The notes under the pieces: generated by a model
What the model was told of the DNA's origin: nothing
Database searches by the model: none
What the model saw: the letters and a program-made list of their open reading frames with translations, nothing else
Translations under genes and position numbers: made by a program
Part shown: piece after piece, positions 44,148 to 62,307 of the stretch
Layout of the letters: each line of letters starts with the position of its first letter
How positions within the stretch are numbered: the first letter of the stretch is position 1
From: a virus
Reading direction: 5' to 3' (one strand)
Virus record (IMG/VR): IMGVR_UViG_3300032242_003075
Coordinates: 1-64,000 of that record
Length of the DNA stretch: 64,000 nt

Positions 44148-45530
44148 ATGATAGTAAGCACAGAATTTCATACTGAGGATTCCTCATTGCTTATTTCCTA
44201 TTATAATGCAGAAGGACTTTTAGAATTGATTAAGAAACCAATTCTACCTCATGATCTCTTTAACTGGACATTAACTCCAAATCCAAGCGAGTTTAGGAAC
44301 TGGGATGATAGGTTTCTTAAAAAGACCCAAGGCAAATGGTTAAGCCGATTCAGGCTTGAGGAACTGACTCAGACTAGACTTAGCGAGTCTGAATTAGCCG
44401 CAATCTACTCGGATTACAGCCCTAAGAAGTACTACCTGGATATTGAGATTCAATTAACATCAAATGAGTTTCCGGATCCGGCAAAAGCAGCAATGCCCGT
44501 TAATTTAATAACCTTTGTGAACGAGGAAAACATTTGCTTCATACTATCGACCATGAAGCATCTAGAAAAGCCAGCAATTGAACAGATGCAATCAGAGGTG
44601 AACGATTACTTTAAATCGCATAACCAGAATTTCACTCTTAAGTACCTATTTTTTGAACAGGAGGAAGAGCTATTAAAGATGTTCTTTCATAAGGCTCTAC
44701 CTAAAATTCCTTTATTAACAGGTTGGAACGTTATTGGGTTTGACTGGGTTTACCTAATTAATCGATGCAAGAATTTAGGTATCGACCCGATGGAAACCAT
44801 GCCTTCCAAAACTTTGATCGGTAAAAGTAAAATGCCAACTCACTTAGGCCTACTTGACTACATGGAAGTTTTCATGAACACTAAACCTTACAAAGTCGTT
44901 GAGAATTATAAGTTAGACTACATTGCTAACCTGGTTCTTGGAACCACCAAACTTCATAGCGAGTATGCTACAATGATCGAGGCTCAACAAGATATTGAAA
45001 ATTTCATCAAGTATAACATAATAGATACGGTTCTGGTTAAATTGATTGAGGATAAGCTTGGCTTGCTTGACGTTGCGTTTGCAATCTCTAAATTTGCAAA
45101 GGTTGACGTGTCCAAGGTGTTTAGCGCCGTGTACATCACCGAGACATTAATGTGTCGTGAATTCTTAGAAAGGGGTCGATACATGGCAAATGATCGTCGA
45201 GACGTTCAGGAGGAGGCTACCTATGTAGGAGCATACGTTGCAAAACCTGTGCCGGGTTACTACAAGTACGTATCTTGCTTTGACTTTGCTTCGATGTACC
45301 CAAACATCCAAATACAGTTTAACATTTCACCGGATGCATACTTAGGTAAAATTCAAGAAGGTCAGACCATTCAAGATGATCAAATCTTAACAAAGAACAA
45401 TACAGTATTTTCTAAAAAGACCGATTCGGCTGCTAGAACGATCTTAACTAGGCTGTATAACGGTCGTGTTGATACTAAGGCCGAGATGAAAAAATTAGAA
45501 GAACAACTGACTGGTGCTAAAGTTGCTTAA
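44148..45530 (+). CDS. gp43: Family B DNA polymerase, N-terminal subunit only (exonuclease + motif A)
   Basis: LDIE, GWNVIGFD, YKLD, YNIID, YVGAYV, FDFASMYP..FNISPD; ends in the first fingers helix with no KxxxNSxYG or YGDTDS. Confidence 0.88.
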   Translation: MIVSTEFHTEDSSLLISYYNAEGLLELIKKPILPHDLFNWTLTPNPSEFRNWDDRFLKKTQGKWLSRFRLEELTQTRLSESELAAIYSDYSPKKYYLDIEIQLTSNEFPDPAKAAMPVNLITFVNEENICFILSTMKHLEKPAIEQMQSEVNDYFKSHNQNFTLKYLFFEQEEELLKMFFHKALPKIPLLTGWNVIGFDWVYLINRCKNLGIDPMETMPSKTLIGKSKMPTHLGLLDYMEVFMNTKPYKVVENYKLDYIANLVLGTTKLHSEYATMIEAQQDIENFIKYNIIDTVLVKLIEDKLGLLDVAFAISKFAKVDVSKVFSAVYITETLMCREFLERGRYMANDRRDVQEEATYVGAYVAKPVPGYYKYVSCFDFASMYPNIQIQFNISPDAYLGKIQEGQTIQDDQILTKNNTVFSKKTDSAARTILTRLYNGRVDTKAEMKKLEEQLTGAKVA

Positions 45531-46194: not shown

Positions 46195-46750
46195 CCAATT
46201 CACATCGGACGAACACAGTCAATTCGGAAAATTTAACGTATTGACAAAGACTCGAGATTCTCATTCTTCCCAGTACCTATCCGCTCAGTCAAAGTACATC
46301 GCGATAATTCCATTCGAAAGAAACTCTGAGAATAACATCAAATCCATTTATTTGCTTGATTTTCCGAATTACTCAACCGGTCGATCAGCTCAATCGCTAA
46401 TAATAGATGAAATCGACCAGACTAAGGATAAGACTGTCTTTGATTCTGTGTGTCGAGCTTTGGTTGAGGAGGCAGGCCTCGATATTGATGCTTTATCAAT
46501 AAACGAGAATAACATTTTTTATCTTGGTGAAATTACCACAACCTGGCCGGTGTCATCAACTCTTCAATGTTATGGAATTGATCTCACCGGTAAAGCTTCC
46601 CTAGAATTCACCAGAAACTTATCTAAGGATCCTTTCATCAAAGATGAATCTTCTATAATCCAAGCAAACTTTCATCAAGTAGTTAACGGAGATTACTCAG
46701 ATTCAACGGTTTTAGCTGGATCATTTCTCCTAGTTTCATATTTTAACTAA
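46187..46750 (+). CDS. NUDIX-fold hydrolase-like protein
   Basis: Degenerate Nudix box DSVCRALVEEAGL followed by FYLG. Confidence 0.6.
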   Translation: MNNQFTSDEHSQFGKFNVLTKTRDSHSSQYLSAQSKYIAIIPFERNSENNIKSIYLLDFPNYSTGRSAQSLIIDEIDQTKDKTVFDSVCRALVEEAGLDIDALSINENNIFYLGEITTTWPVSSTLQCYGIDLTGKASLEFTRNLSKDPFIKDESSIIQANFHQVVNGDYSDSTVLAGSFLLVSYFN

Positions 46751-46801
46751 AACAATTTCCGCATCTTATGTACAAGATGCTAAAGACAATTTTTAACACA
46801 C

Positions 46802-47692
46802 ATGGCAAAAACACCAATGGACGCATTCGCCAAGTTTAACGACTTGCTCGAAAAGAAAGTCAAGTCCAAAATAGACATCAAGGGATTTTCAGACATTGAT
46901 GAATACATCCCAACCGGTAATTACCTCTTAAATGCTCAAATGTCAGGCTCTTTGTTCGGAGGTTATCCGAACACTCGAAGCATTGGTATCGCCGGTGACT
47001 CAGGTTCAGGTAAAACGTTCTTGTGCTTGAATGCCGTACGTGAACTTCAAAAGCTAGGATACGTAGTTTTCTATATCGATACTGAGGGAGCTATTGACCG
47101 ATCTGACTATCTTAAATTTGGAGTCGATCTTGACAAGCTCACTTACCTTCGTATGGGTTACATTAGCGAGGTTAAATTTTTCATTAACGATTTCATTGAA
47201 ACTATGAAAGAAAATCCAGGTTTAAAAGTTGCAATATTTGTTGACTCGGTGGGGATGTTAGACACAGACAAGAGTAAAAGGGACATGGAGGCCGGTAAAA
47301 ACGCCGCTGACATGGGTCTTCGCTCAAAGGAGATGAGATCTCTTTTTAAATCGTTCACCCTTGAGCTTTCAAATTTACGAGTGCCATTTATTTTTACGAA
47401 TCACACTTACGCTTGCCTTTTAGGAGACCATAAAATTCTAACACATCAAGGTGAACTTATGATTTCTGAACTTAAAGTAGGACAATTAGTAGAAACTTTA
47501 GAAGGTTTAAAACCTATTGAAAACATATTTCAATACGATTGTCCAAAATTGATTGAAATAGTATTAGAGGATGACACAGTTATCAAGTGTACGCCTAATC
47601 ATAAGTTTTTAATCGGCGATGATTGGTCAAATGAAGATCATTGGGTAGAAGCAATGGATTTAATTGATGGAGCTGAAATAGTTTATAAATAA
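46802..47692 (+). CDS. uvsX: RecA/UvsX recombinase N-terminal part (204 aa) fused to split intein N-fragment (92 aa, from Cys codon 47414)
   Basis: Walker A GDSGSGKT, YIDTEGA, FVDSVG, DMGLR, TNHTYA, then CLLGDHKI...CTPNHKF...WVEAMDL; promoter AAAC-N16-GTACAAG at 46750-46776. Confidence 0.93.
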   Translation: MAKTPMDAFAKFNDLLEKKVKSKIDIKGFSDIDEYIPTGNYLLNAQMSGSLFGGYPNTRSIGIAGDSGSGKTFLCLNAVRELQKLGYVVFYIDTEGAIDRSDYLKFGVDLDKLTYLRMGYISEVKFFINDFIETMKENPGLKVAIFVDSVGMLDTDKSKRDMEAGKNAADMGLRSKEMRSLFKSFTLELSNLRVPFIFTNHTYACLLGDHKILTHQGELMISELKVGQLVETLEGLKPIENIFQYDCPKLIEIVLEDDTVIKCTPNHKFLIGDDWSNEDHWVEAMDLIDGAEIVYK

Positions 47693-47746
47693 AAAATTCT
47701 TGCATGTCTGTGATATATAAAAATAAAGGGACATGCAAGATTTTTT
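47691..47746 (+). promoter_or_regulatory. Hairpin covering the endonuclease start codon, with a late-promoter-like loop
   Basis: tcttgcatgtc (47698-47708) is the exact reverse complement of gacatgcaaga (47730-47740; ATG at 47733), extended by A6/T6; loop contains GATATATAA. Confidence 0.75.
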
Positions 47747-48785
47747 ACAACGAATTATAACATCATCAAATCTAGGATTAGCGTCTCTATCTAAGTCGAT
47801 TCGAAAAGATCGAGAATTTTATGATTTCTTAATTTCACAAACTTCATTTCTTTCAGAAAATGCAAACGTTCCATTTAGACTATATCATATTAGGCAAGGA
47901 TTAACTGAACAAGTTAGATGTAAACACTGCAAAAATCGATTGTTTAAAATTAGAATTGAATTCTGTAATAGGAAATGTGCAGCTATGTTTAATAGCAGAT
48001 TAATTGAAGTTCAGAAAAAGAGATCAAATTCATTAATCGAATCTTTCAGTAAAAAGACAGATTCTGAAAAACTTGAAACTCGTAAAAAACGTGAATCTAC
48101 TAATTTAGCGAAAGGCGGGCATGTTTCGAATCTTCATTCAGTTGAAGGAAAACAAAAAGTCAAAGAAACTTTCATTTCTAAATATGGATATGAAAACCCA
48201 AATACAAATTCATCAATTAAGGCAAAAATTTCAGCTGCAAATAAATTAACCTCAAATCATGCTTTAGTTGTACGTAAGAGCACCTGTTTAGAAAGATATG
48301 GTGTTGATAATGTTATGAAAACTCAAGAGGTTAAAGATAAAATAAAAGAGACTTGCTTTTCTAAATACGGCTCACAAAGCCACATGCAAAATGACAAGTT
48401 CTTAGAAAAATTTTTTAATGAATATCACAAAAGGTACAAATCTAAAGACTATGTATTACCTAGCGGAAAAACAGTTAAATTACTAGGATATGAACCTCAC
48501 GTATTGGACTATTTATTGACTAAATTTAATGAGTCTGACATAATTATCGGGTATTCAGCATACCGAAAAATAAAATGTAACTACATTCAAACTGGAAAAA
48601 CCCATCGATATATACCAGATTTCTATATTGAGTCAAAAAATTTAGTAATCGAAGTTAAATCAAACTATACGTACAATTTCGCTGATCCAAATAAGAGAAA
48701 GTCAGTACAAGAAAAAGGAATCAACTTTGTTTATGCAGTAGTTGATATAAAGAAAAAGAAAATATCATTTAATCGTTATGAATAA
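47733..48785 (+). mobile_element. Free-standing putative homing endonuclease (PD-(D/E)XK) between the split-intein halves
   Basis: CKHC...FCNRKC zinc motif, four T-x-x-x-K/R-Y-G-type repeats, C-terminal YIPDFYIESKNLVIEVKS; visibly more AT-rich than the flanks. Confidence 0.82.
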
Positions 48786-49476
48786 AATTAAAATTAAATC
48801 AGTAAAAGTCATTGAAAATTCTGAAAAAGTGTATGACATACAAGTAAAAGATGTGCATCACTACATCCTATCAAACAGGGTAGTTTCGCATAACTCAATG
48901 GATCAGTACACACCAAAGGGCATGTCCGGTGGTGGAGGTCCTGAATTCTCCGCATCAATCATTTTAATGTTGAGCAAGGGAACTCTTCGAGATGAAAGTA
49001 AGACGACTACTGGTATAATTGTAAGATCAAAAACGAAAAAGAACAGATTAGCCAAACCCATTGATATTGAGTTTCACATATCGTTTCATAAGGGTATGAA
49101 TCCTTACGTCGGGCTGGAACAATTTGTTAATTGGGAAAATTGCGGAATAGTTAGGGGTTCAAAATTAACCGAAAAGGAATTCAATAAGCTTAAACCTGAG
49201 GATCAGGCCAAATGTCATACGTTTGAAGTGAATGGGGAAACTTTCTACGTTAAACCGAGCATTCAAGCTAAGAACTTCATCGTTAGAGGAACCGGTGCGG
49301 AAGTCCCAGTAAGAGAATTTTTCTCAGCCAAGCTATTCACCGATGCAGTGCTAAAAGAATTGGACGAAAAGATAATTCAGCCAACCTTCAAATTCCCGGA
49401 AGGTCAAGAGGGCATAAATGTCATGGAAACTGATGAACTTGAGAACTTAACTGATACCTCAGACAATGATCTTTAA
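48778..49476 (+). CDS. uvsX: Split intein C-fragment (39 aa, ends HN at 48894) fused to RecA/UvsX C-terminal part (193 aa)
   Basis: KIKSVK...VYDIQVKDVHHYILSNRVVSHN|SMDQYTPKGMSGGGGPEFSASIILML, KKNR, GMNPYVGL. Confidence 0.93.
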   Translation: MNKIKIKSVKVIENSEKVYDIQVKDVHHYILSNRVVSHNSMDQYTPKGMSGGGGPEFSASIILMLSKGTLRDESKTTTGIIVRSKTKKNRLAKPIDIEFHISFHKGMNPYVGLEQFVNWENCGIVRGSKLTEKEFNKLKPEDQAKCHTFEVNGETFYVKPSIQAKNFIVRGTGAEVPVREFFSAKLFTDAVLKELDEKIIQPTFKFPEGQEGINVMETDELENLTDTSDNDL

Positions 49477-49810
49477 GCCGACTGACCATCTTCCTCTTAA
49501 GTACTTACTTGATATTCAGGCAAACCTACCGAGCTATCCAACTTCACAGGACTTTCTATTTGACGTCATCTCTTACCTAGTACGAGTTGCCGAATCAAAA
49601 TCCAAAGAATGGGACTCTGACTTAATTAAATTTTCCACTAAAACCTTAAAATACGTATTCGGTGAAAAACTTACACCCGAATTCTTAGATAAGCTAAAAC
49701 TTATCATGCGTGACTTAATACAAGATGGCACGTTAGTAAAAAATGGAGAATACTTAATAATTAATCAATCCGCATTTAACCGCTTTTACACGATATTACA
49801 ACCTGACTAA
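49466..49810 (+). CDS. Hypothetical protein (possible winged helix)
   Basis: 114-aa ORF between recombinase and helicase; LIQDGTLVKNGEYLII wing-like end. Confidence 0.6.
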   Translation: MIFKPTDHLPLKYLLDIQANLPSYPTSQDFLFDVISYLVRVAESKSKEWDSDLIKFSTKTLKYVFGEKLTPEFLDKLKLIMRDLIQDGTLVKNGEYLIINQSAFNRFYTILQPD

Positions 49811-60597: not shown

Positions 60598-62307
60598 TTA
60601 TAAATTATCGGCTGACCATTCAAATTTCCAATTACCGCATTCAAATGTTCGGTATAGACCCCTTTCGTGCATTATCTGAAGTTCAGTTTTAGTTGGGTCC
60701 TCGCCCTGTAGAACAAGCTTGTGTTTCATGAAGTTATTCCTGGGCATCCTGATTCCGTTGACCACCCACGAATACGAATTTGATCTACCCAATAGCTTAA
60801 ATCCAAGTTTATGATACACGGTACAGGTTGGATCCGGTGAAATGTCTACGTCGCAAAAGCTTATCACCCGGGCAGGTCCTATTTCTCGTACGAATCTTGA
60901 GAATAACTTTGAGGCTCCTCCTATTACTGACGTGTTCAACTTTGTGCAAAGTCGTTCAAGCTCCCAAATTTCGGACTTTCTGACGAATGTCATGACCTCA
61001 ACTAATTCTGACTCGTAGAACAGGCCGTATGCAATCGTACATCTCTTTCCTCCCTTTAAATGATTTTCCTCGCAAAAATCCTTTGCCTTTTTCGAATCCA
61101 TTCTATCGATGGTGCATTTTCTTGCGAATATTCTCGATTTGGACATCCCCACAAAGTTATTAATCATGCTCTCAACTATCGGTCTTTTGGTTGACCAGTC
61201 ATCTTCCCAGACATGATGTAGTTTTATTCCATGTGAATGAGCTAGCATCGTTTTATTAATGTGGTATTGAGAAGGTTTTTCCATTTCACTATGCCAGTAA
61301 GTTCCGTTAAATTCAATCGCAATCATTTCTTTCGGTAAAAAAATGTCCAATTCTGTTCCCTTTAAAACGTATTTTCTATTTAATAGAACGTTAGGGCCGT
61401 ATACTGATATGACGTAATCAGCTAAACTTTTTTCAGCCTTTGAGAATCTTCTGTTTGATATGTCTGACTTATTACAGAAAGGGCAAGGATCAGCGCCTCT
61501 TCTTAGCTTAACGTTAACGCATGAATTTGCAAGCACGAACGAGTTACTGCATTTATTGCACAGTAATGAATAGTACTGAGTTGTAGTATCGTGATCAACT
61601 AATTCAATCTGGTAGGACTTTAACTTGGCTGAGGCAGCGATTGCTAGCTTGATCTTATTTGATTTTCCAACCTTACTTGAAATTTCTGGGCTTTTAGCAG
61701 CATTTTCAAAACCGTACCTACTTAAATTAGTATCTTTGGTTTTTTTAATACCAAGCATGTTTAACGTTCCCTGAGAATCAATCGTTGACTGCTGTTGTTT
61801 TTTTAATATATCATAATTCTGTAAAGCATGTTTAGCTCCATACCTCTCAACCATGGTCTTTTCCATAGATTCTCTCGGTTTTCCGGACCAATTGTGCTCA
61901 GAACCGTATCGTTCCATCATGGTTTTTCGGTAATTATCCCTAGTTGATTTCAGCTTGGTTGGATGATCAACTCCGTGCTTAAGCATGGTGCTTTCCCTTA
62001 AAGTTAGTAGGCGATTACTATCAATGCATGATTTATCCCCACATGTCTCTAAGTAGCCTTTAGAATATGTATTGAATTTTCTAAGTTTACCGCATTCGCA
62101 TCTAACTCCATTTTCTGAGTTGACGATGGACCATAATATCTGCTGTGGATTGTCAGGTACTTGAAACTTATTGATTAAAAAATCTTTAAACTCTTTGTCC
62201 TTTCTTAATATGGTCAATTCGCTTTGAATTCTAACGTTTGCCATTTTTTTCTCTAATAGTTTCTCCCTGAGTGAATCTAGTTTTTCTTGATTAGTTAGAG
62301 GTTCCAT
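60598..62307 (-). mobile_element. Free-standing putative homing endonuclease (Hef-like) downstream of the capsid gene
   Basis: Zinc motifs, T-x-x-x-R-Y-G repeats, ELDIFLP...IAIEFNGTYWHS nuclease, then IFARKC...ELERLC...VIGGASKLF domain; own TATAAATA at 62335-62342. Confidence 0.78.

Follow-up and report, generated by a model that had tools for sequence, protein, structure and literature searches.

A phage uvsX recombinase gene probably fractured by a split mini-intein and a putative homing endonuclease gene

The virus record IMGVR_UViG_3300032242_003075, from an uncultured large phage, comprises 89,882 bases and is ~33% complete by CheckV; with its relatives as a guide, the complete genome would measure ~250-270 kb. 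Its positions 1-64,000, here called the window, carry a UvsX/RecA-type recombinase gene in two separated parts, each of which borders on a predicted intein half, with a putative nuclease gene between them. Three open reading frames (ORFs) on the plus strand make up the locus, 46802..47692 (296 amino acids [aa]), 47733..48785 (350 aa), and 48778..49476 (232 aa), and since they lie in three different frames, fusion by read-through is impossible. The features of the locus, in order, are the following.

46802..47413, plus strand: N-extein, UvsX/RecA-like residues 1-204, with Walker A motif GDSGSGKT, ending in ...FTNHTYA
47414..47692, plus strand: predicted split-intein N-half (IntN), 92 aa, with Cys1 and block B ..KCTPNH.., matching TIGR01445; TAA stop at 47690-47692
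47684..47691, plus strand: T4-late-promoter-like word TATAAATA across the IntN stop, TATAWAWA motif
47690..47747, plus strand: RNA hairpin predicted by folding, its 3' arm lying over AAGGG and the nuclease ATG (47733)
47714-47721, plus strand: second promoter-like word TATATAAA in the hairpin loop, TATAWAWA motif
47733..48785, plus strand: free-standing putative homing endonuclease, 350 aa, matching DUF7487 and phrog_3339, with D296, E307, and K309
48778..48894, plus strand: predicted split-intein C-half (IntC), 39 aa, with block F VYDIQVKDVHH and block G VVSHN, matching TIGR01443
48895..49476, plus strand: C-extein, Ser+1 and UvsX residues 205-397 (SMDQYTPKGMSGGGGPEFSAS...) to the stop, matching phrog_18112/phrog_97 and collinear with intein-free alleles

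The best PHROG match for the N-extein is the UvsX-like recombinase family phrog_97 (E value 7.9e-42), and the same region matches the Pfam RecA family with 53.4 bits (cut-off 27) and the phage UvsX structure 9gbg in the PDB (E value 4.8e-24). The C-extein matches the recombinase family phrog_18112 (E value 2.6e-9) and also positions 227-317 of phrog_97, so that the RecA core with its Walker A motif and the NQ/NH-L2-GG region typical of RecA/UvsX recombinases are both present. The exteins of 204 and 193 aa add up to 397 aa with a computed ligated mass of 44.5 kDa, compared with 391-401 aa for intein-free alleles. The initial annotation, made from the letters of this stretch, had described the N-half as a RecA N-terminal part ending in TNHTYA followed by a 92-aa intein part with Cys1 and CTPNH, the C-half as a 39-aa intein part followed by Ser+1 and the RecA C-terminal part, and the joined UvsX as ~397 aa and ~44 kDa; its ORF coordinates and sequences are correct as written, and this anatomy agrees with ours throughout. 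At the DNA level, 46802-49476 has zero matches among 50,697 phage records, which hold no close cultured relative, and at the protein level the identity of the N-extein is at most 39%, to huge uncultured phages.

Both fragments that had been proposed as intein parts score above the curated cut-offs of the NCBIfam intein models. TIGR01445 (intein_Nterm) matches residues 205-271 of the N-half ORF with 28.4 bits (cut-off 24.5), and TIGR01443 (intein_Cterm) matches residues 17-40 of the C-half ORF with 25.5 bits (cut-off 15.6), the boundaries falling at Cys1 and at Asn/Ser+1. The IntN sequence starts with CLLGDHKILT, contains CTPNH, and ends with EIVYK directly before the stop, while the C-half ORF begins with MNKIKIKS...VYDIQVKDVHHYILSNRVVSHN, followed by S MDQYTPKGMSGGGG. 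A profile built from nine N-halves has its best PDB match in the gp41-1 intein (PDB ID 6qaz, E value 1.2e-7), followed by the DnaE, DnaB, and RadA inteins, and IntC aligns best with the C-terminal end of the Pyrococcus horikoshii RadA intein (E value 3.8e-3).

The window carries the full set of class 1 intein residues, namely, C1, T60-P-N-H63, H38-N39, and S+1. C1, T60, and H63 are invariant in the N-half alignment, and a Cys start together with T(P/Q)NH is found in all 19 split N-half clusters and in the contiguous allele P0121, both described below. The C-half intein ends in HN followed by Ser in 18/18 clusters, and the divergent metagenome loci that reach the junction read HN/S in eight cases and HN/T in one (L055), where the slash, here and below, marks the intein boundary or insertion site. 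The halves had also been described as acidic and basic, which holds for IntN (net charge -12, isoelectric point [pI] 4.4) and less so for IntC, being just mildly basic (net charge +3, pI 9.5).

Intein-free alleles, whose existence in related phages had been anticipated, define the insertion site exactly. The first ORF was compared with a collection of 5.8 billion proteins, and the best 120 of the 840 proteins at an E value of <=1e-5 were examined. Dozens of them are uninterrupted proteins of 391-401 aa that are 84-95% identical over the N-extein. Aligned to the window, they read ...PFIFTNHTYA and then SMDQYTPKGMSGGGGPEFSAS..., matching the joined exteins residue for residue with nothing added or missing; the junction appears as ...FTNHTYA/SMDQYTPKGMSGGGG... 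and FTNHTYA/SMDQYTPKG, and residues 1-204 of the N-ORF and 40-232 of the C-ORF tile these alleles with no gap and no overlap. The N-half retrieved 43 IMG/VR loci; the site is uninterrupted in 41, split as in the window in one (L004, on the same contig as L003), and missing from one (L036), whose contig ends before it. The intein-free allele P0023 aligns across the site to E. coli RecA and to phage UvsX structures, the NH of the motif pairing with N-Q of E. coli RecA and TYA/SMD with IRM/KIG, i.e., I195-R196-M197/K198. We take this to place the site between RecA residues 197 and 198 in the DNA-binding loop L2, assuming the usual numbering and loop limits, which supports the earlier claim that the join is collinear with UvsX at L2.

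The first 14 bases past the insertion site, TCAATGGATCAATA, are nearly invariant in the SMDQY-bearing intein-free IMG/VR alleles (L005-L046). The invariance extends to synonymous positions, and the window has CAG where those alleles have CAA. This stretch could be part of the nuclease target or could reflect codon preference.

The relatives of the window locus form a series of alleles. The best 120 of the 840 proteins include 19 N-half clusters (P0001-P0018 and P0022, P0001 being the window's own), all with the same stop position, and there are 18 C-half clusters, each with its own ATG. A search for longer proteins yielded P0121, a UvsX of 535 aa in which a contiguous mini-intein (IntN-LNLNG-IntC) occupies this site; the first 299 residues of P0121 are identical to the split N-half P0012 at 298/299 positions. 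Scanning metagenome contigs with an N-intein profile left 80 loci, 13 of which (L047-L059) have a UvsX-type N-extein beside the intein. A homologous nuclease gene lies between the halves in 8/13 (L047, L049, L050, L051, L052, L054, L055, and L056), L049 and L056 being cut by the contig end and L053 ending at a contig edge. Locus L057 retains a 109-aa nuclease remnant, L048 is split without a nuclease gene (TAA stop, 17 nucleotides [nt], ATG), L058 is contiguous, and in L059 a related intein lies three residues past the site. At just 32-47% identity to those of the window, the exteins of L051-L058 indicate that the arrangement spans deep phage lineages.

The relatives cover the uncut gene, the contiguous mini-intein, the fractured gene with nuclease, the decayed nuclease, and the split intein without nuclease. 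Two sublineages of the intein can be told apart (CILGDHK... and CFPGEQL...). Fractured uvsX is also common in metagenomes: searching 1.84 billion representatives with a profile returned 3281 proteins at an E value of <=0.001, and among the best 150 of these 50%-identity representatives, 33 have a UvsX-like N-extein, of which 24 end <=15 residues past the N-intein (split or contig-cut), 5 are contiguous, and 4 are unclear.

The ORF between the halves, which the initial annotation had called an endonuclease gene, encodes a putative nuclease whose relatives are annotated as homing endonucleases. Its best Pfam match is DUF7487 (E value 2e-40), with weak matches below the cut-off to the TnsA-like N-terminal domain (5.8e-4) and phage endonuclease I (8e-3), and in PHROG it matches the homing endonuclease family phrog_3339 (4.3e-14) and other families annotated as endonuclease. 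GenBank phage relatives at 26-34% identity carry the annotations HJR family nuclease, homing endonuclease, and Hef-like homing endonuclease. The eight nuclease homologues of fractured uvsX loci share an N-terminal CxxC...C region and tandem (K/R)YG repeats. In the C-terminus, ..YIPDFYI..VIEVKS.., D296 (in PDFYI) and E307 (in IEVK) are found in 8/8 and K309 in 7/8, with Q in L051; as a sequence motif, this D...ExK arrangement is the PD-(D/E)xK pattern. No GIY-YIG, HNH, LAGLIDADG, or Vsr family is among the Pfam matches at an E value of <=1, where for Vsr a shared fold might be missed by sequence methods. The NCBIfam search returned no family, and we found no paper mentioning DUF7487.

Several further observations concern this nuclease family. 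The nuclease of L051 (3847-5109) shares the N-terminal repeats, while its C-terminal part is longer and reads ...LLIEMQGDYWH... in place of ...VIEVKS..., which may be a swapped or diverged catalytic module. On the minus strand of the window, at ~61597-62073, a second ORF (open frame of 579 aa) matches the DUF7487 repeat region with E values of 1.6e-8 and 2e-6 and, by this similarity, is a further relative of the putative DNA-binding repeats in the same genome. The Lak megaphages were considered as a published case of fractured uvsX and rejected, as their loci have an uninterrupted uvsX (...VVNHVYQSMSFIPQN...), with in-frame stops that presumably reflect recoding. In the Prevotella phages Lak-A2 (L127, MK250019.1) and Lak-A1 (L128, MK250016.1), free-standing homologues of the nuclease flank the uninterrupted uvsX on both sides, an indication that uvsX is a target of this nuclease family even where there is no intein.

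The start of the nuclease gene lies within a predicted RNA hairpin. The fold of 47676-47760 has an energy of -24.3 kcal/mol (z -7.4), and 0/200 shuffled sequences fold as well. Hairpins with unrelated stem sequences are predicted at the same place with z <=-3.4 in 5/7 other loci, or 6/8 with the window (L047, -5.6; L051, -6.3; L052, -6.5; L054, -3.4; L055, -4.3). The TATAWAWA motif has 14 matches in the 64 kb, three of which are found here, and the hairpin loops of other loci contain similar promoter-like words, which may act as T4-type late promoters. Downstream, the C-half ORF, counted from its ATG, overlaps the end of the nuclease ORF by 8 nt, in the window as in L003. The 14 gene starts of the window between 37006 and 51351 have A-rich leaders without a Shine-Dalgarno sequence, with the exception of the nuclease gene (AAAGGGAC), a hint at the host's mode of translation initiation.

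All parts of the locus are under purifying selection. Between the window and L003, the ratio of nonsynonymous to synonymous substitution rates (dN/dS) is 0.025 for the N-extein, 0.10 for IntN, 0.16 for the nuclease gene, and 0.044 for IntC, and the values against L047 are similar, with all cassette parts <=0.2. At conserved residues, the fraction of codons that are identical amounts to 0.64-0.69 in the cassette versus 0.42-0.51 in the exteins, although the resulting argument for a younger cassette is qualitative because the synonymous divergence (dS) of the exteins is near or past saturation.

The IMG/VR loci have common neighbours: upstream, two small ORFs, and downstream, an ORF of 114 aa and the gene for a DnaB-like helicase. 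The helicase and uvsX trees are incongruent. Long branches divide the helicase tree into two clades (100% support); the window is the sole intein carrier in a clade of 32 rows, and L004, L047, L048, and L050 belong to the other. In the C-extein tree, by contrast, the window groups with L004, L047, L007, and L008 of the other helicase clade (support 99). Constraining the C-extein to the window's helicase clade costs 48.8 log-likelihood units and is rejected by the approximately unbiased (AU) test (p-AU 9.6e-7), a test weakened by the fact that the group was named after the trees were seen. In its third quarter, the window's C-extein shares 73-77% identity with L004/L047/L007 and 50-52% with its own clade. 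All this is most simply read as a transfer of the cassette from the other clade, during which the extein downstream of it was co-converted. As a separate observation, the N-extein tree puts the intein-free loci L005 and L006 with the window and the other helicase clade, and the C-extein tree puts them with their own clade, so that more than one of these phages has a mosaic uvsX.

We interpret uvsX in this phage as a fractured gene, with a split mini-intein in the L2 codons, an inserted nuclease gene, and two halves that trans-splice, and assign this reading a probability of about 85%. A mini-intein would have come to sit in the L2 codons, and its endonuclease-insertion loop would then have received a free-standing homing endonuclease gene of the PD-(D/E)xK type, so that intein and host gene alike were split over two ORFs. 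The products, an N-half of 33.4 kDa and a C-half of 26.2 kDa, would associate through the acidic IntN and the basic IntC. Class 1 trans-splicing would follow, with the acyl shift at Cys1, attack by Ser+1, and cyclisation of the terminal Asn, releasing the 397-aa, 44.5-kDa UvsX with the native junction ...NHTYA-SMDQ... and the predicted junction peptide NHTYASMDQYTPK, along with free IntN of 10.5 kDa and IntC of 4.6 kDa. It is the conserved splicing residues and the selection acting on all parts that point to trans-splicing. In mixed infections, uvsX alleles that lack the intein or the nuclease gene are the probable target of the nuclease, and once they are cut the cassette would be copied in along with flanking extein DNA. 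The hairpin over the start codon would hold nuclease translation down, and the late-promoter-like element in its loop may relieve this block.

Some results weigh against this interpretation, in addition to the qualifications given above for the codon comparison and for the AU test. The Pfam Intein_splicing model, which aligns in register to the N-half (positions 37-86 of its 155) and the C-half (122-155), scores both below its own cut-off, and what stands behind the predicted Hint fold of the halves are sequence-profile matches. The nuclease yields chance matches at most in the PDB, searched up to an E value of 10, as a single sequence and as an eight-sequence profile. The hairpin is weak in 2/8 loci (L003, z -0.7; L050, z -1.2), vertical descent is not rejected for the N-extein (AU test, p 0.29), and a search of sequencing runs for the stretch returned no RNA run among the matches.

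The locus could be explained in other ways. The intein halves might be merely dimerisation domains that hold the recombinase parts together without a peptide bond, much as a fragmented ribonucleotide reductase is assembled through mobile-element-derived interaction domains (PMC3045599). Their complementary charges (-12 and +3) could allow them to associate unaided. However, none of the alleles examined has lost Cys1, TxxH, His-Asn, or Ser/Thr+1, with exteins just 32-47% identical, and an interaction would not require these residues; moreover, an unspliced complex would leave 131 extra residues in the DNA-binding loop L2, and we consider non-covalent assembly unlikely. A decaying pseudogene, in which the insertion inactivated uvsX and the phage uses another recombinase, seems very improbable. 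Although a second recombinase could lie elsewhere, the record being only ~33% complete, a dN/dS of 0.025 in the N-extein and of <=0.2 in the cassette parts, with neither frameshifts nor internal stops, does not fit decay, nor does an architecture that 19 N-half clusters, 18 C-half clusters, and deeply divergent lineages have in common.

The initial annotation had itself named two alternatives, an RNA intron and an erroneous stop at 47690, and neither is upheld. For the intron, 47690-48777 would be a self-splicing element with the nuclease ORF inside, whose removal leaves an mRNA for a contiguous mini-intein precursor; codon K296 joined to the ATG at 48778 would indeed be in frame, and phage recA genes are known to harbour group I introns that carry an endonuclease ORF, as with I-Bth0305I (PMC3239194). 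Searched on both strands against Rfam, 46500-49800 gave no group I or group II family at an E value of <=1, the matches being three hairpin-like microRNA chance hits below their gathering scores. Because of this result, the stop plus 17 nt between the halves of L048, which is too short for an intron, and the own ATG of the C-half in 18/18 clusters, we hold an intron to be highly improbable. As for a false stop or a chimeric insertion introduced by sequencing or assembly, the sole run containing the stretch is probably the source sample and so gives no independent support for the exact sequence. The stop position nevertheless recurs in 19 N-half clusters, and the same architecture is found in independent assemblies (ENA, JGI, Logan, and NCBI), in IMG/VR L003/L004, and in the metagenome loci L047, L050, L051, L052, L054, and L055; with so many independent assemblies in agreement, we regard such an error as excluded.

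An extension of the fractured-gene interpretation is that the cassette gives the recombinase its own temporal control, with translation of the C-half coupled to that of a nuclease gene shut by the hairpin and released from the late promoter. Active UvsX would then be made only alongside the nuclease, so that a selfish element times recombination to its own DNA cutting, and the timed gene would be the one whose product repairs the cut. We consider this doubtful and do not favour coupling, since most genes here lack a Shine-Dalgarno sequence and independent initiation on the C-half is thus plausible.

A second gene of this genome may also be divided. At 44148-45530 on the plus strand, the window carries a family-B DNA polymerase ORF of 460 aa with the exonuclease domain and positions 16-143 of the 453 positions of the polymerase domain. 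The ORF end bears no intein signature, and the record of 89,882 bases contains no second part; the polymerase is probably divided between two genes that lie apart.

The nearest solved intein is the gp41-1 split intein (PDB IDs 6qaz and 6riz), which the window's IntN alone matches with an E value of 4.4e-4 and the nine-N-half profile over positions 7-65, limited to the first two thirds of IntN. We take gp41-1 to be a mini-intein of a size similar to that of the 92- and 39-aa halves of the window. It differs in host protein and insertion site, and its IntN is positively charged (PMC2677866), the opposite polarity to the acidic IntN of the window. The inteins of Mycobacterium RecA and P. horikoshii RadA (2lqm/4e2t) likewise reside in RecA-family recombinases but are contiguous and cellular. 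A bacterial survey lists 56 RecA inteins (PMC4760082), and the accounts of RecA and RadA inteins that we examined report none as split.

Among the 50,697 GenBank phage records, the best match for the window's IntN is gp204 of Salicola phage SCTP-2 (MF360958.1; 37% identity, E value 3e-6), and no uvsX with this intein at the same site is found there. The protein, annotated as 'hypothetical protein', is RecA/UvsX-like, has intein N- and C-terminal regions above the NCBIfam cut-offs, and contains two contiguous mini-inteins with no nuclease gene. The related one is inserted behind ...KISGG of the L2 region, at a position 14 residues C-terminal to the window's site, and the second one in this gene (L133, 1403-3373) lies in the P-loop (GDSG/C...HN/SGKS). 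The PolB gene of the Pseudomonas jumbo phage MIJ3 likewise combines a split intein with an endonuclease ORF, but the host is PolB, the endonuclease is of the HNH type, and the intein starts with Ser (PMC6892783).

Fractured genes were described by Dassa, London, Stoddard, Schueler-Furman, and Pietrokovski in 2009 for gp41, IMPDH, DnaE, NrdA, NrdJ, DNA ligase, and terminase (PMC2677866). The window locus has the traits of that type: collinear ORFs on the same strand, intein halves, an intervening endonuclease gene, and a hairpin plus promoter-like element. As in the loci of that study, the break in the intein coincides with its endonuclease-insertion region, the endonuclease start is preceded by a hairpin and a T4-late-promoter-like element, and, as with gp41-7, a nuclease-less allele exists (PMC2677866). 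Unlike there, the host is uvsX, which in the main text of that paper, its supplementary locus table apart, appears just as the upstream neighbour of gp41 loci. The endonucleases described there (PMC2677866) are GIY-YIG and Vsr-like/EDxHD enzymes, I-Bth0305I being a characterised EDxHD member (PMC3239194), whereas here the gene belongs to DUF7487 with D...ExK. The recombinase host and intein pair had been suggested as possibly new. The literature searched, supplements apart, gave us no description of uvsX or recA with a split intein, while the arrangement itself is frequent in public metagenomes. The mechanism is the known one of a fractured gene, and what appears new is the host gene uvsX and a nuclease family unreported in such loci.

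The locus adds UvsX/RecA, cut in the DNA-binding loop L2, to the hosts fractured by split inteins, and the element sits in the very enzyme performing the strand invasion that homing needs. DUF7487 would be a further, uncharacterised homing endonuclease family, and the many diverged natural split pairs, at least 24 in the best 150 representatives, are candidate orthogonal trans-splicing tools. The uvsX family holds the whole proposed pathway of split-intein origin at one site of one gene, and with alleles ranging from uncut to nuclease-free, the stepwise model of Dassa and colleagues becomes testable with natural alleles.

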